Positions 4,384 through 63,408 of a DNA stretch of 64,000 nt are shown here, one piece after another; position 1 is the first letter of the stretch, and each line of letters opens with the position of its first letter. The notes under the pieces were generated by a model. The model saw only the letters and a program-made list of their open reading frames with translations, was not told the DNA's origin and searched no databases. The stretch comes from an uncultured virus (IMG/VR IMGVR_UViG_3300046812_000144) (lineage: Duplodnaviria; Heunggongvirae; Uroviricota; Caudoviricetes): IMG/VR virus record IMGVR_UViG_3300046812_000144; one strand, given 5' to 3'. The position numbers and the translations under genes were made by a program.

Positions 4384-4740
4384 ATGAACCATCCCGGCGA
4401 CGACGCCCGGAGCGCGTGGAACCGTGGCCCCGAGATCATTGCAGCCGAGGAGCGCATCCTGCTGTATGCCGACGGGCTCCTCTCGTTCATGCGCTCGGAG
4501 AAGACAGACATCCTCAGCGAGTCGGCCGGGGCGATCGCCTTCTTCACCCACCGCAACGGGCAGGGCTTCGCGCCCAACCCGTTCGATAAGCCCATCGGCA
4601 CGACACAGAAGTACCTGCTCGAACGGATGGACCCAGACAACAACCGCCTGCTGGCGGAACTCCTGCGCGCTGCGTGGGACCTCCGCTGCTGGCGCGAGCA
4701 TTACCACGAGATCACACCAGAGGAGAGAGACCGCCTGTGA
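4384..4740 (+). CDS. Hypothetical protein
   Basis: Strong RBS; coupled to rtcB. Confidence 0.7.
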   Translation: MNHPGDDARSAWNRGPEIIAAEERILLYADGLLSFMRSEKTDILSESAGAIAFFTHRNGQGFAPNPFDKPIGTTQKYLLERMDPDNNRLLAELLRAAWDLRCWREHYHEITPEERDRL

Positions 4741-5939
4741 AGTTCTATGGTGACATTCCAGTCTGGGGCGACCCGGTCGACGAGGGCGCACTCGCGCAGG
4801 CTCAGGTCTGCCTTCGCACCGCCAAGCACGTCGCGATGATGGCCGACCACCACCTCGGCTACGCCGTTCCGATCGGTGGCGTCGTCTCCTACGAGGGAGC
4901 CATCTCGCCCTCGGGCGTCGGCTACGACATCGGCTGCGGCAACAAGGCCGTTCGGCTCGACATCCCGGCGCACTACGTCACCGAGAACCTGCCGGCCATC
5001 ATGGACGCCATCGTGTCGCAGATCAGCTTCGGCATGGGCCGCACGAATGACACGCCCGTCGACCATCCCATCCTCGACCGGAGCGAGGCCCGCTGGAACC
5101 ACCCGGCCGTGCTCCCACTCAAGCGGATGGCGGCCGACCAGCTTGGCACCGTCGGCGGCGGCAACCACTACGTCGACATCTTCCTCGACCAGCAGGACCG
5201 CGTCTGGATCGGCGTCCACTTCGGCTCGCGTGGCCTCGGCCACAAGACGGCCACATGGTTCCTCAAGCAGGGTGGCGCGAAGGATGCCATCAATGCCGAG
5301 CCACTCGTGCTGCCTCTCGCGAGCGCCCTCGGTGCCGAGTACCTCCAGTGCATGACGCTGGCGGGCGAGTACGCCTACGCCGGCCGCGACTGGGTCTGCG
5401 CCAAGGTGGCCGAGATCATCGGTGCCGAGATCGTCGAGGAGGTCCACAACCACCACAACTTCGCGTGGCCCGAGGAGCACTTCGGTCAGAGCCTCATCGT
5501 CGTCCGCAAGGGTGCCACCCCGATGTGGCCCGGCCAGCGAGGGTTCATCGGAGGTTCGATGGGCGACCCGGCCTTCATCGTGCGTGGCTTCGACCCGTTC
5601 ACCATGGCGGCCAAGCGCGACCAGCTTCTCTCGATGTACTCGGCTCCCCACGGGGCCGGCCGCCTGATGTCGCGCACTGCGGCCAAGGGCAAGTTCGTGA
5701 AGGATGCGAACGGCAAGAAGCAGCGCATGCCCGGCCTCGTCCGGCATGATGCGTGGGCCAAGTGGATGGAGGATGCCGGCGTGGAGCTTCGCGGTGGCGA
5801 CCTCGACGAGGCTCCGCAAGCGTACAAGCGCATCGAGGAGGTGCTCGCGCACCACACCTACATGCAGATCGACCACACACTCCGCCCGATCGGCGTTGCA
5901 ATGGCCGGCCGGGACGTCGTTGACCCATTCAAGGACTAG
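4737..5939 (+). CDS. rtcB: RtcB-family RNA ligase (3'-P/2',3'-cyclic P to 5'-OH)
   Basis: Motifs DHHLGYAVPIGG, VGYDIGCG, GTVGGGNHY, HFGSRG, HNHHN, RKGAT, HGAGR and DEAPQAYK. GTG start at 4737. Confidence 0.95.
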   Translation: MKFYGDIPVWGDPVDEGALAQAQVCLRTAKHVAMMADHHLGYAVPIGGVVSYEGAISPSGVGYDIGCGNKAVRLDIPAHYVTENLPAIMDAIVSQISFGMGRTNDTPVDHPILDRSEARWNHPAVLPLKRMAADQLGTVGGGNHYVDIFLDQQDRVWIGVHFGSRGLGHKTATWFLKQGGAKDAINAEPLVLPLASALGAEYLQCMTLAGEYAYAGRDWVCAKVAEIIGAEIVEEVHNHHNFAWPEEHFGQSLIVVRKGATPMWPGQRGFIGGSMGDPAFIVRGFDPFTMAAKRDQLLSMYSAPHGAGRLMSRTAAKGKFVKDANGKKQRMPGLVRHDAWAKWMEDAGVELRGGDLDEAPQAYKRIEEVLAHHTYMQIDHTLRPIGVAMAGRDVVDPFKD

Positions 5940-7459: not shown

Positions 7460-8080
7460 AGATCACACTGAAAGAACCCGTCGAGATGAACGTCACCGCT
7501 CTCGTCCGCTACAAGGGACGCCCCGATGCCCTCTTCGCCTTCGAGATGAACGCTCACCAATACATCACGATGCTCGTTGGCCGGGGCTATGCCCGTGAGA
7601 ACTTCACGGTCGAGGTTCTCGCCTGATGAACTTCTTCAGCGTGCAGACCGAGTGGAACATCGTCACGGTCGTCGCCGTTCTCCTCGGCATCATGGTCGAG
7701 GGCCTCTTCATCAAGGGCATCTCCGACTTCTTCCGCTGGCGGTCGTACGGCTCGGCGTGGATGGGCATCGGCCTGAACATCGTTGTGGCCCTGATGGCGA
7801 TGGCGGTCATCATCGAGATTCACCTCCACCCATGAGGATCATGAAATCGCGGCACGACGAGTGGGCCGACTCGATGGGCGACGCGATGGGCCGGCCGCCG
7901 GTACCACGCCCGTGGTACAACGCCGAGTGGGTCTACATGATCGCCACGCTCCTCTTCGTCAACCTCTTCATCGGGACGCAGGTTGCACTCGTCATGAGGC
8001 ACTGGAGCTACTGGTTCACATGGCCGTACCACGCTGTCGTCTTCATCTACCACAACGTCTTCGCGGGGATGACATGGTGA
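7456..8080 (+). other. Three small hypothetical genes (7456-7626, 7626-7835, 7832-8080); two are membrane proteins
   Basis: Coupled ORFs; 7626..7835 is a paralog of 94..297. Confidence 0.65.
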
Positions 8081-8982
8081 AGTCGAAGGGTCTCGCAGTC
8101 GCCGTCGTCCGCATGCAGGTCGACGAGCTTCACGCCGGCCACAAGTTCCTGATCGAGTCGATGCGCGCCCTCCACGAGAAGGTGCTCATCGTGCTCGGCG
8201 CTTCACGCGCGCTGCTGTCGGTCACCGACCCCTTGCCGGTGGCCGCTCGGCGCGACATGATCCAGACGGCCTACCCGGACGTGACCGTGACTGCCCTCGC
8301 TGACGAGGCGTCGGATGTCGAGTGGTCGAAGAACCTAGACTGGCTCATCGGCATGTTCCGCACGGCGACAGGGACGGGCATCGAGCCGCCAACGCTCTAC
8401 GGGGCCCGCGACAGCTTCATCCAGCACTACAAGGGCATGTTTCCGACCTGTACGCTCACCTCGCCTCAGTCCGAGTCGGGCACCGACGTGCGGAACGCGA
8501 TCCAGATGGAGGACGACCCGGCCTTCCGGCGAGGGATGATCTTCGCTGCGAAGTCGCTCTACCCCATCTCGTTCCAGACTGTCGACGCGGCCATCATCCA
8601 GCAGGGCAAGGTCCTGCTTGGGCGCAAGAACAGGGACGGCGGCGGTTGGCGCTTCATCGGCGGCTTCGTCGACCCGACCGACGCCTCGCTCGAAGATGCC
8701 ATCCTCCGCGAGGTCCGTGAGGAGACCGGCCTCGAAGTAGCGCAGCCGACCTACATCGGCTCGTACCGCATCGACGACCCGCGCTACCCGAAGACGGGCC
8801 GCGACCGCATCCTGACTGCCTTCTTCTCGATGCCCGTCTCGTTCGGCTTCGCTTTGGCACGCGACGACGTCGACGCGGTCGCATGGTTCGACATGCAGAA
8901 GCTGCCTCCACTGGTCGAGAGCCACTGGCCTCTCGGCCTCGCGTTCCGCACCCACTTCTTTGGAGCCCTCCGTGCTCGCTAA
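8074..8982 (+). CDS. Bifunctional NMN adenylyltransferase / Nudix hydrolase (NadM-Nudix, NatV-like)
   Basis: Nucleotidyltransferase RMQ...HAGH and SGTDVR; Nudix box GGFVD...EDAILREVREETGL. Confidence 0.9.
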   Translation: MVKSKGLAVAVVRMQVDELHAGHKFLIESMRALHEKVLIVLGASRALLSVTDPLPVAARRDMIQTAYPDVTVTALADEASDVEWSKNLDWLIGMFRTATGTGIEPPTLYGARDSFIQHYKGMFPTCTLTSPQSESGTDVRNAIQMEDDPAFRRGMIFAAKSLYPISFQTVDAAIIQQGKVLLGRKNRDGGGWRFIGGFVDPTDASLEDAILREVREETGLEVAQPTYIGSYRIDDPRYPKTGRDRILTAFFSMPVSFGFALARDDVDAVAWFDMQKLPPLVESHWPLGLAFRTHFFGALRAR

Positions 8983-10351
8983 CAACATCCTGCTCCTCAC
9001 CGACTCGTACAAGGTCAGCCACTGGAAGCAGTACCCCAAGGGCACGACGCACGTCTTCAGCTACCTCGAAGCGCGCGACGGCGGCGAGTTCGGTCAGACG
9101 CTCTTCTTCGGCCTCCAGTACATCATCAAGAAGTACCTCGAAGGGCAGGTCGTCACCCGCGAGAAGATCGAGGAGGCGGCCATCTTCTTCAGCCGGCACT
9201 TCGGCAACGAGACGCTCTTCAACCGCGCCGGGTGGGAGCACATCCTGCTCGCGCACGACGGGCATCTGCCGGTCATCGTCAAGGCCGTGCCCGAGGGCTC
9301 TGTCGTCCCGACGGGCAATGTGCTCCTGACGATCGAGAATACGGACCCCGAGACCCCGTGGCTCGTGAACTACTTGGAGACCCTGCTCGTGCAGGTCTGG
9401 TACCCGACGACCGTCGCGACCCAGTCCCGCTACATGAAGCAGGTCATCCGCGACTTCATGGAGACCACGGGCAGCAGCTTGGCCGGGCTCGACTTCAAGC
9501 TGCACGACTTCGGCTACCGTGGCTCGACGAGCGTCGAGTCGGCCGGCATCGGCGGCTGCGCGCACCTCGTGAACTTCAAGGGCACCGACACGATGGCGGC
9601 CCTTCAGGTCGCGCACGAGTACTACGCCGAGGCGATGGCCGGCTTCAGCATCCCGGCCGCCGAGCACTCGACGATCACTTCATGGGGTAACGAGCGTGCA
9701 GCCTACGAGAACATGCTCGACCAGTATCCGACGGGTCTGGTCGCGGTCGTGTCGGACAGCTATGACATCTTCAACGCCGCAGACAAGATCTGGGGCGTGG
9801 AACTGCGCGACAAGGTACTCTTCCGCGACGGCACCGTCGTCATTCGTCCCGACAGCGGCAATCCTGTCGCCGTCGTCATCAAGCTGCTCGACATCCTCGG
9901 GCAGCGGTTCGGCACCTCGCTGACGCCGACCGGCCACAGGCTCTTGAACCCGAAGATCCGCGTCATCCAAGGCGACGGCATCGACCGCAACATGCTCCTC
10001 TCGATCCTGCGTAACATGATGGCGGCCGGGTGGGCTGCCGACAACCTCGCGTTCGGTTCGGGCGGCGGCCTGCTCCAGAAGGTCAACCGCGATACGATCC
10101 GCTTCGCCATGAAGTGCAGCGCGATCAAGATCAACGGCCAGTGGAACGACGTGCAGAAGCACCCGTCCACCGACCCGTCGAAGAACTCGAAGGCCGGCCG
10201 GCTCATCCTCTGCAACGATGGCACGGAGGAGTACACGACGGCGCGCGAGGGCGCGGGCAGTAACTACCTCAGCGTCGTGCTGCGGAACGGCTGGATGCCC
10301 CGGACGCAGACACTGGCCGACATCCGTTCGCGGGCGCAGGACAACCTGTGA
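8972..10351 (+). CDS. nadV: Nicotinamide phosphoribosyltransferase (NAMPT)
   Basis: TDSYKVSHWKQYP, WYPTTVAT, LHDFGYRG, GTDT, SIPAAEHST, VVSDSYD, RPDSG, IQGDG, FGSGGGLLQ and RDT. Confidence 0.95.
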   Translation: MLANNILLLTDSYKVSHWKQYPKGTTHVFSYLEARDGGEFGQTLFFGLQYIIKKYLEGQVVTREKIEEAAIFFSRHFGNETLFNRAGWEHILLAHDGHLPVIVKAVPEGSVVPTGNVLLTIENTDPETPWLVNYLETLLVQVWYPTTVATQSRYMKQVIRDFMETTGSSLAGLDFKLHDFGYRGSTSVESAGIGGCAHLVNFKGTDTMAALQVAHEYYAEAMAGFSIPAAEHSTITSWGNERAAYENMLDQYPTGLVAVVSDSYDIFNAADKIWGVELRDKVLFRDGTVVIRPDSGNPVAVVIKLLDILGQRFGTSLTPTGHRLLNPKIRVIQGDGIDRNMLLSILRNMMAAGWAADNLAFGSGGGLLQKVNRDTIRFAMKCSAIKINGQWNDVQKHPSTDPSKNSKAGRLILCNDGTEEYTTAREGAGSNYLSVVLRNGWMPRTQTLADIRSRAQDNL

Positions 10352-24473: not shown

Positions 24474-24651
24474 TGATCTGCGACGCGTACGCATGGGGCG
24501 ACGTGCCTCCGCCATGGGCGTTACTGCCCGACGGGACGCTCGTCGTCGTCATCGACCCCACGCGCGGTGGCAGTCGGGGCGATGGGACACCCATCCGGTG
24601 CTACCTTGCCGGTCGGGTCGAAAGTGGCAAGGTGCCACACTGGACGGCCGT

Positions 24652-25236
24652 ATGAACAACAAGATGCTGCTGATCGACACCGAGACAGGGGGACTAGACG
24701 CCTCCTCTCACTCGATCCTCTCGCTGGCCGCCCTCGTGGTGGACTACGCGGGGCGGACGATCGACGAGATGTACACGCTCATCGACGAGGGCGAGAACGT
24801 CATCACCGAGGACTCAGCGCTCGCGATCAATGGCCTCTCGATGGTCACGATCCAGCAGAGGGGCGTCTCGCCGATCCGGGCCGTGGGCCTGCTCTACGAG
24901 ATGCTGAACCGGCACAACATGCTGCACAACGTCACGGTCGTGGCGCACAGTGTCAAGTTCGACTTCCCGTTCCTGCGGCGTCTGTTCCGCGAGGCCGGCA
25001 TCAACGACACCTGCTTCAACGATGTGTTCTCCCACCGGACGATCTGCACGCAGGCCGGCGCGGGGCTCCTCATGCAGGCCGGCGTCATCAATCCGACGTC
25101 GACCTCCCTCGCTAATCTGTGCGAGTACTTCAAGATTCCACTCAATCGGACGAAGGGCCACAACGCACTGGAAGATGCACGGGCCACGGCCGCGGTGTTC
25201 GAGTGCCTGCTGCAACGCTGTCAGGAGGGCCTGTGA
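24652..25236 (+). CDS. DEDDh 3'-5' exonuclease (DnaQ/RNase T-like)
   Basis: IDTETGGL, AHSVKFD and HNALEDA. Confidence 0.88.
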   Translation: MNNKMLLIDTETGGLDASSHSILSLAALVVDYAGRTIDEMYTLIDEGENVITEDSALAINGLSMVTIQQRGVSPIRAVGLLYEMLNRHNMLHNVTVVAHSVKFDFPFLRRLFREAGINDTCFNDVFSHRTICTQAGAGLLMQAGVINPTSTSLANLCEYFKIPLNRTKGHNALEDARATAAVFECLLQRCQEGL

Positions 25237-25635: not shown

Positions 25636-25639
25636 TCTT

Positions 25640-25716
25640 TGGCATGTAGCTCAGTTGGTAGATGCACCCGTCTGTTAAACGGGAGGTCGCAGGTTCGAGT
25701 CCTGCCATGCCAGCCA
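25640..25716 (+). tRNA. tRNA-Asn(GTT)
   Basis: Acceptor TGGCATG/CATGCCA, anticodon arm CCCGT-CTGTTAA-ACGGG, T arm GCAGG-TTCGAGT-CCTGC, G73 and encoded CCA. Confidence 0.95.
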
Positions 25717-25718
25717 GC

Positions 25719-25793
25719 GTGACTGGTCGCGAAGAGTCGAGCGGGGAGGCTGTGAACCTCCCTTACCGGATGCGAGTTCCGGCAGTCACTCCA
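25719..25793 (+). tRNA. Non-canonical tRNA-His(GTG)-like RNA
   Basis: Acceptor GTGACTG/CAGTCAC, anticodon arm GGAGG-CTGTGAA-CCTCC, T arm CCGGA-TGCGAGT-TCCGG, U73 and CCA. Confidence 0.78.
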
Positions 25794-25800
25794 CAAACGC

Positions 25801-26412: not shown

Positions 26413-26666
26413 TGCCTCCGCGCCAAGAGCCGATCGAGCTTACGACTCTGCTCGTGCTGCTCGGTCTTGATCTCGTCGAGCGACTTGTCGACGCCCTTCG
26501 TGTGATCTTCGAGCACGCTGATGCGTGACTCGTGGTTGTGCCCCTCGGTCGAAAGCCGAGAGGCCATCGCCGCTACTCCCGTGATCGCCACGCCGATGAT
26601 GGCCGTGATGAGGGCCTTGATGACCCACGAGGGAATGACGGTCTGCTTCAGTACTGTATGGTTCAC
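26409..26666 (-). CDS. TM plus coiled-coil protein (holin/XhlA-like)
   Basis: One TM followed by RISVLE...LDEIK...KLDRLL; adjacent to the holin. Confidence 0.55.
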   Translation of the reverse strand: MNHTVLKQTVIPSWVIKALITAIIGVAITGVAAMASRLSTEGHNHESRISVLEDHTKGVDKSLDEIKTEQHEQSRKLDRLLARRQ

Positions 26667-28978
26667 TGGGTCCCTCCGGGTGGCACCAATGGCACAGATG
26701 GTTGGCCGGCCTGACGGGCCTGCTGGTACGCCTGCGCGTTCGCTCTGATCCATGCCGCCCGAGCCTTCAGACGCTCGGCTCTGACGAAAGAGCGAAGCAC
26801 TGCTTTGGCTGCGATCGGATTCATCCCCTGCGTACGAAGTGTGGCTTGTGTCGCTGCTTCCTTATCGGCTTGCTTGATCGCCTCGACGTAGGCCAGAGCC
26901 TGATCGGCCGGGATCTCGCCCTTGACCCCGATGAACGGGATCGTTTCGGGCGTCAGCTTTGTCGAGTACGTCTGGAGCCCGACGCCAAAGGCTGCCGGCA
27001 GCGAGTACGCGAGTCCCTCGATGCCCTTGTCCTTCAGTGCGTCGTAGACGTCCTGCATCGCCAGTGGCACGGCACGCTGTATCAAGGCTCGGGGCCACTC
27101 GAACTTCTGGCCGCCCTGATCCTTGCCACGCATCCAGTCGGTAACGAACGAGGCCACGGGGGCTTCCTTCGCGATGACGAACTGCGAGAGCTTATCGAGC
27201 CGTGTCGGGATGCCAAACTTCGAGCCAAGTTCCGTGACCTTGCCCGTGTCTGCGTTCAAGGACTGATTCGTCACGATCTGCGTACCGAGCCGAATGAACT
27301 GGAACAAGCCACCGCCGAGGTCGATGCGCGTGTTGCCCACCCGGATCTTGCCAGCGTCCGAGGAACGGAAGTCCCACGTCACCTTGGCCCCGCCGGCAGC
27401 CGCGAGGCCGACCAGCGTAACAACCACAGTAGCTGAAGCGAGATTCGTCTTGATCGCCTGCGCCCGAACGAACGGGTGCAGCCCGAGGTAGTAGCCGGGA
27501 TTCAGCGTCTGGATGCGGGCCATTGCCAGCCGAGGACTGAAGAGGATCGTCGAGAGCAGCCCGGTCGGCAGGTCGCCGATCTTCCCTCGCCCTGTGGACG
27601 TGTTGACCCAGTCAGCGAGATCCTTGACGAACTTCTGGTCGTTGACGTCCACGCCGGCCGCAGCCGCCTCGCGCAGCGTGTTCGAGAACACGTCGAAGCG
27701 AACGCGGTTGAGGAAGGTCGTGTACGCCTGCTCCGACTTGCGGATCATCGTGCCCGCGCCGAGCGGAAGATTCTCCGCCATGCTGGAGGCGAACGCCTCC
27801 TCACGGGGCGCGAGCTTGTTGTGCAGGTCCGTGAGCGCGAGCCCGCCGGACTGCGCGGCCTCGAAGTCAGGGTGGTTGCGGATGTACGCCTGTGACTCGT
27901 GGAACTTGGCGTCATCGAATGCACCGAACATCGAAGCCATGTGGTCCCAGTACTCGGGTCTCGCCAACATGAGGATGCCCTGCCGGCCGGGGGCCGACAC
28001 GTCGAACGAGGACATCACAGCGCGTGGCACACCCAGAGCCTGCTTGACACGGTCCCATCCAGTTGCCGGCTTGTTCGAGTCGGCCCATGCGTCGAATCGA
28101 TCGATAGCAGCACGCGCAGCCTTGGGCAGCGGCACTGCATCGATACCTGCTTGCTGATGGAACTTCATCAGTTCGCGCGTCCACGCATCGTTCGTCAGTC
28201 CTTGTCCCTGCCACAGTCCCACCTGCTGTTCGAGGGAAGACATGTAGTTCAGAGCCTGCTGCCAATGCGGCACTTGCCCCGGAGGTGTTGCTGACGTCTC
28301 GGGCGCGTGAAGGGCTCGGATACGTTCCAGAGCCGCCTCGATGCGAACCGCGTCCTGTGATTCAGTACCGAGGGCAAACTCGTTCCATGCCTCATTCTTC
28401 TGTGTCTCAGCGACTGCGTCGAGTTTCGGCATCCCTCGGGCAGCACTGGCCTGTGTCACGGTAGGTGTGTCTTCAGGCACCTCAGTGCTGATCTCGCGAG
28501 CACTGTTCATCGACCAGCGTGTCTTCGGTCGAGACAGGGCTATGGGAGCAGCAGCAGGGGCGACACCGGGACTCGGTTCCTTCGTCGCCTCCGGCTTGAC
28601 GATCGTGCTGGTGACATCCGGGTCGGGCGGCGTCCGCGAGTTCACGAACAGATCCTTCAGTGCCTTCTGCACCTCGGGATCATCCTGCACGCGCAGTTCC
28701 AACGTGTTCTGGAGTGACTGCCACGCGGGCACGCTCACAGCATCGACGTGTGTAAGTCCCGCCTCTTCTGCCTGCCGAAGGGCAGCCGTTCCCCGCAGGT
28801 AGTCATGGATGAGGGGAACCTGTTTCTCAGGGTTCGTGAGTGAATCACCGATCCAGCGTTCGACGTCAGTCGGCGTATGGCCGGCCGCACCCACCATCTT
28901 GCCAGCCGATTCCGTGACGTCACGGCCAGTCGTCCCAATGAAACGGGCGATCCCCTTCAGTAGTGGTTCGTAGTCCAT
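26663..28978 (-). CDS. Large internal virion (ejection) protein
   Basis: Last gene of the virion module; helical, with WDFRSSDAGKIRVGNTRID. ATG at 28978 after an AGGAG RBS. Confidence 0.6.
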   Translation of the reverse strand: MDYEPLLKGIARFIGTTGRDVTESAGKMVGAAGHTPTDVERWIGDSLTNPEKQVPLIHDYLRGTAALRQAEEAGLTHVDAVSVPAWQSLQNTLELRVQDDPEVQKALKDLFVNSRTPPDPDVTSTIVKPEATKEPSPGVAPAAAPIALSRPKTRWSMNSAREISTEVPEDTPTVTQASAARGMPKLDAVAETQKNEAWNEFALGTESQDAVRIEAALERIRALHAPETSATPPGQVPHWQQALNYMSSLEQQVGLWQGQGLTNDAWTRELMKFHQQAGIDAVPLPKAARAAIDRFDAWADSNKPATGWDRVKQALGVPRAVMSSFDVSAPGRQGILMLARPEYWDHMASMFGAFDDAKFHESQAYIRNHPDFEAAQSGGLALTDLHNKLAPREEAFASSMAENLPLGAGTMIRKSEQAYTTFLNRVRFDVFSNTLREAAAAGVDVNDQKFVKDLADWVNTSTGRGKIGDLPTGLLSTILFSPRLAMARIQTLNPGYYLGLHPFVRAQAIKTNLASATVVVTLVGLAAAGGAKVTWDFRSSDAGKIRVGNTRIDLGGGLFQFIRLGTQIVTNQSLNADTGKVTELGSKFGIPTRLDKLSQFVIAKEAPVASFVTDWMRGKDQGGQKFEWPRALIQRAVPLAMQDVYDALKDKGIEGLAYSLPAAFGVGLQTYSTKLTPETIPFIGVKGEIPADQALAYVEAIKQADKEAATQATLRTQGMNPIAAKAVLRSFVRAERLKARAAWIRANAQAYQQARQAGQPSVPLVPPGGTQ

Positions 28979-28986
28979 GAGTTCTC

Positions 28987-31900
28987 CTACAGGCCGACCT
29001 TCTTGATGAAGGCACGGACACGGTTCATCTGCTGTTTGTACCACGCTGGCTGATCGCGGTAGTCCTGCGGGGGCAAGTACTGACGACCATGGTAGCCCGT
29101 CTCGATGGTCTTCTTCCAAGCACCACCCGGTCCGAGCAACGCGATCGCGAACTGCTTGTTCTTGTGAGCGAGGTCGAGTGCCTTGGTCTCATCCTTGACC
29201 ATTACATTGAGGTCGATACTGAACTTGCCCGTGGGCTTGCCTTCAGAGTCTGCAATACGCCAGACTCCGATCGTAGGTTTGAGTCCCTTGGCTTTCAGTT
29301 CCTTGATGAGCGGTTCAACCTGCTGACGGAACTTGAGGATGCGGCCGGGATAGAGCCGGTCACGATCTGTGTTGTGCGTCAGCATCGAGACGACATTGCC
29401 TTCATGCGTCGCCGGCTCGAACGTGTCTGGATCGAACGTATGCCCTGTGTGCTCTCCGTTGCCAGAGACCTCAGTCCAACCGTTCTCTCCCTTCGCGATA
29501 CCCCGTCGAACGGGCTCAAGAGCTTGGTAGAGGTTCTGCATCATCTTCAGATGACCATTGACCTGCTGCACGTATTCCTCGGGCGTGAGCCCACCGAGCT
29601 TACGCTCGACGAGATCTTCGAGGGGACGAGCGGAGCCCGTCTTCGTCGAGGCTGCACGGCCGCCGATCGCTTCCTTCTCTTGGATCGAGCCGACGCGCGC
29701 GCCTTCCCAGACGGCCGCTTGGAACTCGGCCGGGGTCATCCCATTATCGAGCGCCAACTGGCGGACCGCGTTCTCGTACAACTTGTAGTTGTTCGGCTTG
29801 AGCGCCGTCACGTCGTTCATCTTGAGCGCGCGGAGCATCCACCGGTCGAGCACGACGGCATTCGGGTCGCCCCGGAGCGCGTCGAGGAAGTTCTTGATCT
29901 TCGTGTTCTCGGGCAGTGCCTTGCCCGCCGCTGTATCCTCAAGCTGACCGCGCATGGAATCGCCACGGAAGCCCTCGAAGGGCATTCCAGCCTTCCACTG
30001 TGCGTACGCCTTGAGAGCCATTGCAGCGCCGGACTCGGTCTGGCCGTTGGCCGACGTGACCGCGAGGAAGCGGAGGAACATGTCCGAGTCTTCCCCGAAT
30101 CGCTGCTTCGCCCACGTTGCCGTCTTGTTGTACCAGCCCATGCCGTACTTGCCTGAGTCCTTCAGGTCAAGTAGCTCTTTCAAGTTCGCGTCAGCCGTGC
30201 CCGTGTCCTTGAACATACGGACGAAGTGCTTCTGTGCCAGTGCCGAGATCTTCTCGATGAAGGGCTTTACGACCTCGCCGTACTTGCCGACGAGGTATGA
30301 CGCGAAGCTCTCGGGATCGCGAAGCTGCTTGGCGAACATACTGGCAGCCAAGTCGAGAGCCGCGTCCCCGATCATCGTCGGGTCGAAGCCCGCGTTCGCG
30401 CGGCCGAGCTTACTGTTGAGGCGTGCCCTCGCTGCTTCCGCAACCTTGTCGAGAGACGCCGCGACCTGTGCCTGATGCTGGCCGATCGGCTGGCGGATGA
30501 CGTCCGCCGTTGCCATCTGGCCTTCGGGCAGCTTCGTGCTCGCGGTGATCTCGAACCCACGGGGCGCGAGGTAGTTCTTCATCTGCTTCTCGATCGGGAT
30601 CTTGCCCCCGTTCGAGTCGATCTTCGTCAGCCGCATCGTGACGGGCACACCGTGCTCGTCGGCCGTCGTGGTGATATGATCGAGGACCTTGCCCAGTGCG
30701 CCACGCTCGGCCTGCACGCCGCCGGGGAGCCCGAGCCGTTCGATATGCAGCGCGCCGTTCTGCTCCTTCACGACTGCGTGTTCACCCACGGACAGCTTGC
30801 CGAGGGCCTCAGCCGCCCGGTTCGCGGGCGCTTCGGGTGTGGCTGGCGAGGCAGGAGTCGCACCTGCAACCTCCGCGTTCAGAGCGCGGGGCTCCACTGT
30901 TGAGCTACTCGCCGACGGTGCAGCCGGCGCGAGAGCCTCCTCGCGCGGCGTTACGACTGGGGCCGGGACAGCAGCCGGGGCCGCCTCCACTACCTTGGCG
31001 CGCGGCTTCTTCAGCGGGGTCTCGGGGACACCGAGGACCTCGCGCACGCGCGCGTCCCGCATCGCCGGAGTCACCTCGGGCTGCGGCGGGACAGCGAGCC
31101 GCTCGCGGGGCTCGATGGCAGGCTCGGTGTTCGGAGCGATGCCGCTCGCGGGCGGGGCTTGAAGCTCATTCATCTGTGTGCGGAGACCGGTCGGCGGAAG
31201 CTGTGCTTCGCCCTGCATGACCGGACGCGGTTCGAGTGGCCGCGTCTCCATCGTCGGTGCGGACTCGGCCACTTGGCCGGGGCCCGCGAGCGCGCCGGGC
31301 GACGTCAGCGAGGGAGGCCCGCCAGTCGGCTCGGTTGGAGGCAACGCGACAGCGCCGAAGTTCGCCGTCTCACTCTCGGCCGCTTGCGCGAGCTTGATCT
31401 TGTTTCCGATGGCGTCGATAGCCCGAAGACCAGCAGCCGTCTGGAGCGCATCAGAACCGTGCTCTGACGCGATGATGTTCTGGGCAGCGACAAACGGATC
31501 GCCTTCAAGCGGGTACTGCGTACGATCAGCCCGGAACCTTGTGGCGGTGTTCGCAATCTGATCGGACTGCACGCGGAGACGGTACGCTTCGGCACCCTTC
31601 TCGCGCTCTTCTGTGGCCTTCGCTTTCGCAGCGTAGTCTGCTTGGTTCTTCTTGAGAGCCGCCGTATTGGCTTCACTCACCTCCTCTGCCACTGCATTGG
31701 CCTTGGCCTCAGCCCGAGCGGCGTGCTCACCGGGGAAGCGGGCGATTGCACCAGCCGTCTCACCGATTAGACCGAGACCACCGCCGAGCAGAGCACCACC
31801 CTTCACACCAGTTGCGCCTTCCTCGACACCACCACGGACCATCTCGCTCGCGACTTCCGCCGGGCTAAGATTGGCTGCGCTGGCTTCAAGGGCCGCACGG

Positions 31901-32952
31901 GTTGCCCCTTGCACACCAAGACCGACACCACCAACGATGGCACCCGTCGCCGCATGCTTCGCTGCCTGAAGAAGTGGATTCACCGCTTTGGCGGCAACGG
32001 CTCCTTCCTTGGCGATGAGTCCCATGCTCTTAAGAGCCCTGTTGAGTGGGCCTGCACCGGCACCAAGGAATGCAGCGTCTGCAAGTGCCCTCGCTGGCTC
32101 GGTGATCTGCGTGCGCTGCATCGCATCGAGATCCTGATCCATGGAGTCGATTGTCTGCTGCTTGCCGAGTTCGACGTTGCGTGCACGGCGTGATGCTTCG
32201 CCCATGATCTCGTCGTCGCTGAAGCCCTGTGCGCGCAGGCCGGGGGCCAGCTTCGTGAAGTACTCCTGCGTGCGACCATCGACGTTCGGGCCAGCTTCCA
32301 CCTGCCCCATCTTCTGCTGCTGCGCGAGGATGAACGCCTCGTCCACGAGCATGTTACCAGCGTGGCCCGCAGCAAAAGCAGCTTGTGTTGGTGCGCCACC
32401 GAGGGCCTTCGCCACGGTACTCGCTCCTGTACGGAAGGCAGTCGTACCGACGGTAGTAGCGATACTCGGCAGTTCGGCAGCAGCGTACGGAGCCAGACCG
32501 ACAGCAGCCTCACCAACGGCATGCCGCAAGGGAGTTGTCGACTGCATGAACGTCGGCTTGAAGTCGGCGAGGTACGTGTCCTTCAGCTTCTTGTCGTATG
32601 CCTCGGGCGTCATCTCACCCGCGAAGCGCGCCCGGTGACGAGCAAGGATCTCACGGTCGCTCATCCCACTCATGTCGAAGTCATCCGCGAACTTCGTGCG
32701 GATGCCATTCGCGATGTGGTTGATCTTCGCTTCGTCGAGATCGTTTCCCTTGTACTCAGTATTACCTGCAACAGGGGCAGGCGGGGGAGCCGGAGAGTTC
32801 ACGGTGTCAGCTTCACTACCTGCAACAGGCTCGGCAGCAGGCGCGTCCGGGTCGAATGCCGCCGTGTCAGTCGCCGCTGAAGACTGGGGCTTGCCCACTG
32901 CCGCTTCTTGCGCCCGCAGGCGCTTCATCATCTCCGAGAACTTCTCCGCCAT
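28987..32952 (-). CDS. 1321-aa multidomain internal virion / polyvalent-type protein
   Basis: Ala/Gly-rich N-terminal half, Pro-rich linker, GNAT-like segment, and a WY/LAVTS/KIKNF/VLDRW/QAAVW domain. Confidence 0.7.
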   Translation of the reverse strand: MAEKFSEMMKRLRAQEAAVGKPQSSAATDTAAFDPDAPAAEPVAGSEADTVNSPAPPPAPVAGNTEYKGNDLDEAKINHIANGIRTKFADDFDMSGMSDREILARHRARFAGEMTPEAYDKKLKDTYLADFKPTFMQSTTPLRHAVGEAAVGLAPYAAAELPSIATTVGTTAFRTGASTVAKALGGAPTQAAFAAGHAGNMLVDEAFILAQQQKMGQVEAGPNVDGRTQEYFTKLAPGLRAQGFSDDEIMGEASRRARNVELGKQQTIDSMDQDLDAMQRTQITEPARALADAAFLGAGAGPLNRALKSMGLIAKEGAVAAKAVNPLLQAAKHAATGAIVGGVGLGVQGATRAALEASAANLSPAEVASEMVRGGVEEGATGVKGGALLGGGLGLIGETAGAIARFPGEHAARAEAKANAVAEEVSEANTAALKKNQADYAAKAKATEEREKGAEAYRLRVQSDQIANTATRFRADRTQYPLEGDPFVAAQNIIASEHGSDALQTAAGLRAIDAIGNKIKLAQAAESETANFGAVALPPTEPTGGPPSLTSPGALAGPGQVAESAPTMETRPLEPRPVMQGEAQLPPTGLRTQMNELQAPPASGIAPNTEPAIEPRERLAVPPQPEVTPAMRDARVREVLGVPETPLKKPRAKVVEAAPAAVPAPVVTPREEALAPAAPSASSSTVEPRALNAEVAGATPASPATPEAPANRAAEALGKLSVGEHAVVKEQNGALHIERLGLPGGVQAERGALGKVLDHITTTADEHGVPVTMRLTKIDSNGGKIPIEKQMKNYLAPRGFEITASTKLPEGQMATADVIRQPIGQHQAQVAASLDKVAEAARARLNSKLGRANAGFDPTMIGDAALDLAASMFAKQLRDPESFASYLVGKYGEVVKPFIEKISALAQKHFVRMFKDTGTADANLKELLDLKDSGKYGMGWYNKTATWAKQRFGEDSDMFLRFLAVTSANGQTESGAAMALKAYAQWKAGMPFEGFRGDSMRGQLEDTAAGKALPENTKIKNFLDALRGDPNAVVLDRWMLRALKMNDVTALKPNNYKLYENAVRQLALDNGMTPAEFQAAVWEGARVGSIQEKEAIGGRAASTKTGSARPLEDLVERKLGGLTPEEYVQQVNGHLKMMQNLYQALEPVRRGIAKGENGWTEVSGNGEHTGHTFDPDTFEPATHEGNVVSMLTHNTDRDRLYPGRILKFRQQVEPLIKELKAKGLKPTIGVWRIADSEGKPTGKFSIDLNVMVKDETKALDLAHKNKQFAIALLGPGGAWKKTIETGYHGRQYLPPQDYRDQPAWYKQQMNRVRAFIKKVGL
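30840..30914 (-). tRNA. tRNA-Gln(CTG) cloverleaf embedded on the sense strand of the 1321-aa CDS
   Basis: CGGCGAG-TA-GCTC-AACAGTG-GAGC-C-CCGCG-CTCTGAA-CGCGG-AGGTT-GCAGG-TGCGACT-CCTGC-CTCGCCA-G-CCA. Confidence 0.85.
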
Positions 32953-62565: not shown

Positions 62566-62634
62566 CCAATCGCGCACCACGCGCGGGAGGTGGGGGGCGC
62601 GCATCCTAGAACGCGCAGTGACCTTGGAGGCAAC

Positions 62635-63408
62635 ATGAAACTCTTCCTTGTCGGTGGCACCGTCCGTGACCACCTGTTCGGGCTGCCGCAGGGGAACGAT
62701 GTCGACTTCGCTGTCGAGGCCGAGTCGTTCGCTGAGATGGAGACGGTGCTCGTCGCACGCGGCCTGCGCGTCTGGCAGTCGCGGCCCGAGTTCGTCACGC
62801 TCCGAGGGCAGATGCCGCTCTCGGCGCTCGGCACCTTCGGGGGCCTGCTCGGGTTGCGTGGGGGCAAGCACGGCAAGGCGTCTTTCAATCCCGAGCACGT
62901 TGTAGTCGATGCCGACTTCACCCTCTGCCGTGCCGAAACTCAGTACAGCGATGGTCGGCACCCGGACAAGGTGACGCCTGCTGACCTGCTCACAGACCTC
63001 GCGCGCCGTGACTTCACGGTGAACGCTGTCGCCGTCAGCGAGGACGGTCAGTGGGTCGATCCGTTCCGTGGTCGGCGTGATGCCGAGTACAAGGTTCTCA
63101 GGTGTGTGGGTTCCGCGCTCCACCGTTTCGAGGAGGACCCACTGCGCCTGCTCCGTGCTCTCCGCTTCGCTGTCAAACTCGACCTGATGCTGGATGTCTG
63201 GCTCAGTCGAGCCCTCGACGACATGGCCGTCGTCAACCGCCTTGCCACGCTGCCGGTCGAGCGTGTCAGGGAGGAGCTTGGCAAGTCGTTCGCACACAAC
63301 TGGCTCGCAACCGCTCTCGCGCTCGCGACCGACTTCACCACCGTCGGCCACGCTGTGCAAGAGCACTTCCCCACACTGTGGCTGAAGGCCACGACAGAGG
63401 AGAGATAA
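62635..63408 (+). CDS. cca: CCA-adding tRNA nucleotidyltransferase (class II, short)
   Basis: LVGGTVRD, DVDF, DLARRDFTVNA, DPFRG and RFEEDPLRLLRALRFA. Confidence 0.9.
   Translation: MKLFLVGGTVRDHLFGLPQGNDVDFAVEAESFAEMETVLVARGLRVWQSRPEFVTLRGQMPLSALGTFGGLLGLRGGKHGKASFNPEHVVVDADFTLCRAETQYSDGRHPDKVTPADLLTDLARRDFTVNAVAVSEDGQWVDPFRGRRDAEYKVLRCVGSALHRFEEDPLRLLRALRFAVKLDLMLDVWLSRALDDMAVVNRLATLPVERVREELGKSFAHNWLATALALATDFTTVGHAVQEHFPTLWLKATTEER

Follow-up and report, generated by a model that had tools for sequence, protein, structure and literature searches.

The 64,000-nt stretch of DNA analyzed here (IMG/VR record IMGVR_UViG_3300046812_000144), which we call the window, is essentially a whole phage of ~64 kb with 63% GC, known from soil or rhizosphere metagenomes. 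It contains a complete tRNA-Gln(CUG) gene that lies in the sense orientation inside a long protein-coding open reading frame (ORF). The origin of this element as a phage tRNA gene captured in frame in a tolerant linker is well supported by sequence comparison. For its present state, the reading that we favor, with about an even chance of being correct, is that of a captured and intact phage tRNA that would now serve as translated linker, without demonstrated selection on the RNA. The three features at the center of this reading are the following.

30840..30914, minus strand: tRNA-Gln(CUG) cloverleaf with G73 and encoded CCA (ARAGORN, Rfam, frame and translation)
28987..32952, minus strand: host ORF of 1321 amino acids (aa), protein P0001, DUF7178 phage family, distal end of the structural block
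30805..31365, minus strand: Pro/Ala-rich linker of P0001, ~aa 530-716 (alignment A1, columns ~650-1250)

A first-pass annotation, made from the sequence alone, had proposed the tRNA and suggested ARAGORN as a check. ARAGORN called two tRNAs within the window, tRNA-Gln (ctg) at 30840..30914 on the minus strand, as proposed, and tRNA-Asn(gtt) at 25640..25716 on the plus strand. The Rfam tRNA model RF00005 matched 30843..30914 (minus strand) over model positions 1-71 of 71, with a score of 56.1 bits (gathering score 29) and an E value of 2.1e-9 for the whole window, both strands, and all 4227 families. Twenty of the 21 stem pairs are standard. The D stem (GCUC/GAGC), the anticodon stem (CCGCG/CGCGG), and the T stem (GCAGG/CCUGC) pair perfectly, the anticodon loop is CUCUGAA, and the 3' end is G73 followed by CCA. 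All of these details, together with the C1·A72 mismatch that is the sole nonstandard pair in the Rfam alignment, agree with the initial description.

Position 1 is T in 9 of the 10 aligned relatives of the embedded tRNA, which itself has C1. This suggests that C1 is derived, and C1·A72 is the single derived blemish in the molecule. A weak 1-72 pair is tolerated or even favored by glutaminyl-tRNA synthetase (GlnRS). The G2-C71 and G3-C70 pairs, G10, the CUG anticodon, A37, and the weak 1-72 pair presumably fit the identity elements of Escherichia coli GlnRS. Thermodynamic folding in silico neither supports nor excludes the cloverleaf. For the 75 nt, another fold has the lowest energy (-30.7 kcal/mol, vs -30.1 for the cloverleaf), and the anticodon hairpin alone survives when a 275-nt context is folded; the free tRNA-Asn likewise misfolds.

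The tRNA starts at nt 2039 of the host ORF, at codon position 2, and occupies codons 680-705 of 1321 (peptide SASSSTVEPRALNAEVAGATPASPAT), so that it is placed mid-gene and forms no C-terminal extension. Its bases are translated without a stop as S-ASSSTVEPRALNAEVAGATPASPA-T, in line with the in-frame translation that had been reported, and "dual-coding DNA", the term chosen at that time, is correct as a description of the sequence. The 75 nt correspond to exactly 25 codons. The tRNA has a single open sense frame out of three, and this frame is in phase with the host ORF. The stop-to-stop frame across the tRNA extends for 1324 codons, compared with 167 or fewer for 20 free tRNAs.

A chance cloverleaf or an assembly artifact is hardly credible given the Rfam E value of 2.1e-9 and the independent assemblies that agree at this site. 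We used the nearest IMG/VR record, G001 (63,598 bp, 99% complete), for genome-level comparisons, and 201 nt are identical between it and the window. The embedded 75 nt are also identical in contigs L003 and L004, both from other samples. Both tRNA junctions are spanned by single run contigs, such as one of 2589 nt (30400-31300) and one of 151 nt (30784-30934). None of the 24 runs retrieved for this DNA was an RNA run, and the contigs of the four analyzed, all DNA, showed the two known haplotypes only, with no deletion or joint at the tRNA. Because G001, L003, and L004 agree over the tRNA and run contigs bridge both junctions, the assembly chimera that the first-pass annotation had cautioned against is ruled out.

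Comparison of the two haplotypes was informative about translation of the frame. The tRNA lies in the middle of a block shared between them:

30370..31270, no strand assigned: mosaic block ~98% identical to the L003/L004 haplotype

Over the whole gene, the window and L003/L004 are 83% identical. The high identity around the tRNA was considered as a special feature and rejected, since blocks of 50-100% identity occur all along the 13 kb compared; the block is thus ordinary phage mosaicism. Across 300 codons of the block, the two haplotypes differ by 19 synonymous codons and 1 nonsynonymous codon. The 118 linker codons on the upstream side of the tRNA account for 9 of the synonymous differences and the single nonsynonymous one; the other 10, all synonymous, lie downstream. 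The same third-position differences are present in the run contigs. Because the flanking codons differ in this way, it is well supported that the frame is translated and under purifying selection up to the tRNA on both sides. The 26 codons of the tRNA itself show no haplotype differences against an expectation of 1.8, which is no evidence either way (P ~0.17). The GC content at third codon positions (GC3) is 0.58 for these 26 codons, vs 0.83 for 200 codons that flank them (Fisher p 0.007). By this measure, the segment is still unlike the gene that contains it, and the insert is either young or constrained at the RNA level.

P0001 has 16 database relatives of 1207-1648 aa, and most of them align on both sides of the tRNA site. 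The Pro/Ala linker that holds the tRNA is hypervariable in length and sequence among the homologs and is unalignable between lineages. Four homologs (P0004, P0005, P0007, and P0010) have a further segment of well over 100 aa inserted in the same linker (A1 columns ~900-1100). This extra segment is conserved and includes ...FRAVHDFFGHAAEG..., and P0014 has the FRAVHDFFGHAAEG motif too, nearer its C-terminus; Pfam gave no match for the segment in P0004, P0005, or P0014, the three proteins scanned. Two regions were recognized C-terminal to the linker:

30448..30819, minus strand: small alpha/beta domain with a predicted GNAT-like fold, aa 712-835, straight after the tRNA-coded peptide (AlphaFold2 and Foldseek)
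29707..30150, minus strand: DUF7178 region, aa 935-1082 (Pfam PF23802, E 3.1e-10)

The first-pass annotation had described a virion protein with a GNAT-like domain. The AlphaFold2 model of aa 712-835 (predicted local distance difference test score 73.5, from a seven-row alignment) has GNAT acetyltransferases as its top Foldseek matches in the Protein Data Bank (PDB), at an E value of 1e-4 and a TMq of only 0.43-0.50, and the domain is 124 aa long vs 150-195 in the GNAT targets. GNAT-like is a candidate assignment at the level of fold; a Pfam match at E<=5 was not obtained. Atlas matches for the domain were weak, at or below 0.83, and a PDB sequence search with the family profile yielded marginal matches only. 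As to the virion protein, DUF7178 is a family without known function. The host gene sits at the far end of the structural block, ahead of the holin gene, and its putative virion role is inferred from this position.

The embedded tRNA is carried only by the window and G001, L003, and L004. Eleven other distinct contigs include the linker (L005, L006, L007/13, L008/19, L009/22, L012, and L014-L018, with duplicates merged and the fragments L020, L021, and L023, which lack the linker, excluded), and in none of them did ARAGORN call a tRNA within the homologous gene. In the six of these 11 that were also searched with Rfam at E<=5, no tRNA remnant was detected within the gene. The tRNA-coded peptide is absent from all 15 aligned homologous proteins. 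Exact or degenerate tRNA patterns retrieved no further embedded copy and no identical free donor from IMG/VR, a metagenome scan returned 12 loci, none of them close, and the phage GenBank collection gave no match by megablast or tblastn. A search for similarly split gene calls, made with the public gene call P0021, which covers the downstream part of the ORF, revealed no further tRNA-bearing lineage. Because all 11 contigs lack the tRNA, the linker is unalignable, and four homologs have a large extra segment there, the embedded tRNA is, as judged from this distribution, a derived, lineage-specific insertion into an insertion-tolerant site. The 65%-identical sister protein P0002 is without the tRNA peptide yet only 5 residues shorter in this region. 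Its aa 672-680 share "ASPATP" with aa 695-705 of P0001, where these residues are encoded by the tRNA 3' end and CCA. This may reflect a microhomology junction, a decayed copy, or chance.

The source of the insertion appears to be the phages' own tRNA family. The window has one other tRNA gene:

25640..25716, plus strand: tRNA-Asn(GUU), the phage's only free-standing tRNA, CCA encoded, a paralog-like relative of the embedded tRNA

The resemblance between the two tRNAs that had been pointed out earlier is real: they are identical in 54 of 77 aligned columns overall and at 86% over 35 nt of the 3' half, with compensatory changes at acceptor pairs 5-68 and 6-67. In contig L014, a relative whose version of the host gene is 50% identical, the 3' end of the late operon has a free tRNA-Gln(CUG) gene that is separated by 1 nt from tRNA-Asn(GUU) downstream. 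This tRNA-Gln also has a 75-nt build, is identical to the embedded tRNA at 56 of 75 positions, has the same single open frame, and scores 61.9 bits with Rfam. The stem differences between the two are compensated at pairs 3-70 and 12-23, at two anticodon-stem pairs, and at pair 51-63. In L014 7857-8190, the order is holin, a 41-codon hydrophobic ORF, tRNA-Gln 1 nt after the stop of this ORF, and tRNA-Asn 1 nt farther on; the tRNA pair forms the tail of the late operon, and a hairpin with a T run follows tRNA-Asn.

The T arm and 3' acceptor strand of the embedded tRNA recur in free tRNA-Asn and tRNA-Arg(CCU) genes of seven other IMG/VR contigs. In nine distinct tRNAs of this group, pairing holds in 96.8% of cells, and both partners have changed in 15 of the 21 stem pairs. 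When the tRNA and 200 nt on each side were compared by BLAST with all other loci, similarity ended at the tRNA ends, and no tRNA-Gln remnant was found beside the tRNA-Asn of the window. The tRNA sets vary by genome (Asn only; Met-Trp-Asn-Ile; Leu-Pro; Phe-Met; Glu-Tyr-Pro; Met). On account of this variation and the likeness among neighboring tRNAs, the membership of the embedded tRNA in the phages' own scaffold family is well supported by sequence. The tRNA locus changes fast, with Asn alone in the window and L004 and Met-Trp-Asn-Ile in L003. The tRNA-Ile region of L003 (13387-13772) aligns with the tRNA-Asn region of the window (25639-25794) at 86% identity, which suggests that phage tRNAs arise by duplication and anticodon change. 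A tRNA with a long variable arm at L018 6798-6881 (minus strand) was detected by Rfam, at 49.8 bits, but was missing from the ARAGORN calls.

In many temperate phages, the phage attachment site (attP) consists of part of a host tRNA, and we considered whether the element could be an attP taken over from a host tRNA gene or the remains of an integration event. Such an origin is very improbable. No tyrosine or serine recombinase was found in G001 or in the second near-complete genome, G002 (97% complete). The exact 21-nt anticodon arm occurs in only two contigs among 185,579 species representatives, and neither site is a tRNA. Moreover, the whole tRNA is present, and it is inside a structural gene.

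The favored reading is capture from the phages' own repertoire. A tRNA-Gln(CUG) gene of the group's fast-changing tRNA set would have been copied into the Pro/Ala linker and would have landed in the sole stop-free phase of the tRNA. The barrier to such an event is low: of the 57 sense frames of 19 free tRNAs of these phages, 19 lack a stop codon, and 6 of the 19 tRNAs have a length divisible by three. Translation of the insert would now add 25-26 residues to the linker that joins the conserved N-terminal half of the protein to its GNAT-like/DUF7178 half. The capture was probably recent, with the tRNA form staying intact through the short time elapsed, and any RNase P cutting of the late mRNA at the fold would be a tolerated by-product. 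A captured tRNA now used as linker was one of three interpretations offered in the first-pass annotation, beside release of a tRNA late in infection and a built-in mRNA cleavage site, and it is supported by the absence of the element from distant homologs, the existence of a free homolog, the hypervariable linker, and purifying selection on the frame.

Several observations weigh against this reading. The embedded tRNA is undamaged by every sequence test that we ran, and because of this, that the insertion is recent and unselected is inferred from its narrow distribution. Free tRNAs from related phages score 42-74.4 with Rfam, and its 56.1 falls within this range. No other tRNA-Gln occurs in the two near-complete genomes, G001 and G002. 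In 16 long ORFs, the Gln codon CAG occurs 349 times and CAA 48 times. Unchanged tRNA codons between haplotypes are also what dual constraint predicts, but P is ~0.17. Finally, the phage encodes three enzymes that look like a tRNA repair or maturation kit, as judged from their domain matches:

4674-5936, plus strand: RtcB RNA ligase (E 3.8e-65)
62590-63405, plus strand: PolyA_pol-head enzyme, CCA-adding family (E 1e-18)
24493-25233, plus strand: RNase T-type DEDD exonuclease, just upstream of tRNA-Asn (E 9e-15)

The elbow of the tRNA is a further point of this kind. In place of the canonical G18 and U55, the embedded tRNA has A18 and G55. Decay was first suspected and then dropped, as the same combination is found in free phage tRNAs, including tRNA-Phe of L007 (10839-10913) and tRNA-Leu of L018 (6657-6739) from related phages. 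The tRNA-Val of a 164-kb phage contig has A18/G55 along with a D arm and T loop identical to those of the embedded tRNA. The loci with this elbow include L037 350-424. We tested the association in IMG/VR with matched patterns (loci L041-L120 and L160-L239). Among the matches listed, the D-loop site was AG in 44 of 49 distinct G55 stretches, GG in 3, and something else in 2, and it was GG in all 83 distinct U55 controls (Fisher p 2e-32). Because G55 goes with AG and U55 with GG among these matches, A18/G55 is, by this covariation, an elbow variant common in phage tRNAs and no sign of decay. G55 cannot become pseudouridine. These results suggest that tRNAs with an altered elbow form a large class in phages; a literature search found no paper holding both A18 and G55.

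An alternative is a maintained double use of the DNA, in which the element would be a working tRNA-Gln(CUG) and part of the late transcript would fold into the cloverleaf and be cut by host RNase P and 3' trimming enzymes, each mRNA giving either tRNA or protein. We regard this as possible, though less probable than the favored reading. Double use would explain the intact cloverleaf with G73 and encoded CCA, the presumed fit to GlnRS identity elements, an elbow type that occurs in free phage tRNAs, and the presence of repair and maturation genes in the genome. It would also fit the retention of a free tRNA-Gln in the late operon of L014 when G001 and G002 have none besides the embedded one, the location of tRNA-Gln on the late-gene strand both in L014 and here, and the preponderance of CAG (349 of 397 Gln codons counted). 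The 26 tRNA codons, with no changes beside 19 synonymous ones around them and a GC3 that has not drifted toward that of the gene, point the same way. However, the clade is narrow and has two haplotypes, so that conservation carries no statistical weight, and no single phage tRNA looks indispensable because the tRNA sets change between genomes of the group. Processing would destroy the mRNA of a gene that is under purifying selection, the cloverleaf is not the minimum-energy fold either alone or in context (a property that the free tRNA-Asn shares), and no promoter-like site was found near the embedded tRNA, within 30300-31500. A more elaborate form of this idea, which we consider unlikely, is that a working tRNA-Gln of the A18/G55 class is cut from the late structural mRNA and forms, with RtcB, the CCA-adding-family enzyme, and the RNase T-type exonuclease, a supply or repair system, perhaps directed against host defenses that cut tRNAs.

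RtcB also raised the question of whether the tRNA might be excised and the mRNA rejoined by the phage ligase. RtcB does not act on the 3'-OH and 5'-phosphate ends that RNase P and RNase Z produce. We set this candidate aside because the ends would be unsuitable and because an open frame through the tRNA would then be unneeded.

The fold could instead have been kept as a cis-acting RNase P target that restricts how much full-length protein is made or uncouples one half of the mRNA from the other. The location of the tRNA exactly between the two conserved halves of the protein and the presence of an RNase P-type substrate with GCCA are consistent with such a cleavage site, which would resemble a model proposed for selC inside selB (PMC8124441). 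Yet all 16 homologs are single fused proteins without such an element, and the full set of tRNA identity features is unnecessary for cleavage alone. The public gene call P0021 (600 aa, ~28987-30789, minus strand) starts at the first in-frame GTG after the tRNA, 17 codons downstream, and no Shine-Dalgarno-like sequence was found at a useful distance ahead of this GTG. We consider a cleavage site improbable, and capture of an intact tRNA as translated linker remains the reading that we prefer.

Among the genes recognized in the surrounding genome, the structural ones include an SU10-type major capsid protein and adaptor, a portal protein, and a large terminase, and a family A DNA polymerase is also encoded. 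Downstream of the host gene is an 818-aa ORF (26663-29119, minus strand) whose listed TTG start places its first 133 nt within the end of the host gene; translation of this ORF probably begins at a later codon. Elsewhere, a NUDIX-domain gene (7861-8979, plus strand) adjoins a nicotinamide phosphoribosyltransferase gene with NAMPT_N and NAPRTase domains (8960-10348, plus strand), which we take to be an NAD-salvage pair of a kind known in some large phages.

A full tRNA gene midway through a protein gene offers a rare opportunity to learn from nature how much RNA structure can be tolerated in a translated message, and whether RNase P attacks tRNA folds inside bacterial mRNAs. Release of the tRNA, should it occur, would give a phage a new means of tying its tRNA supply to the expression of late genes. 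Nested tRNAs may be hidden or under-counted in databases, because a public gene call such as P0021 starts just after the tRNA.

Phrase searches of the literature turned up no ORF-nested tRNA in a phage, and selB/selC was the sole bacterial case in a protein ORF that they returned. Rickettsia palindromic elements are structured, multicopy mobile repeats that are inserted in frame and translated. Like the element described here, they are folded sequences read as peptide in a tolerant loop or linker; they differ in being multicopy and mobile, whereas the phage element is a single-copy tRNA gene, a type of sequence whose cellular role is known. Animal mitochondrial tRNA and protein genes that overlap, as cited within PMC8124441, likewise share DNA in such a way that processing competes with the mRNA. 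There, overlap is driven by the compaction of an organelle genome; the phage, in contrast, has room between its genes and a tRNA locus elsewhere.

The closest published case is selC, the gene for tRNA-Sec, nested inside the selB ORF of Alphaproteobacteria (Mukai 2021, PMC8124441). In both systems, a whole sense-strand tRNA lies in an ORF and is translated to extra residues; a length divisible by three (96 or 93 nt for selC, 75 nt for the phage tRNA) preserves the frame. In both, tRNA processing and full-length protein are proposed as alternative outcomes, and both are bioinformatic predictions. The two differ in placement, as the tRNA in selB forms a C-terminal extension that overlaps the start of the next ORF and the phage tRNA lies mid-gene between conserved halves. 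They differ also in breadth, since the selB arrangement is described across several orders and the present one in one narrow phage clade. Lastly, the SelB protein binds the very tRNA that its gene contains, whereas no functional tie between tRNA and protein is visible in the phage.

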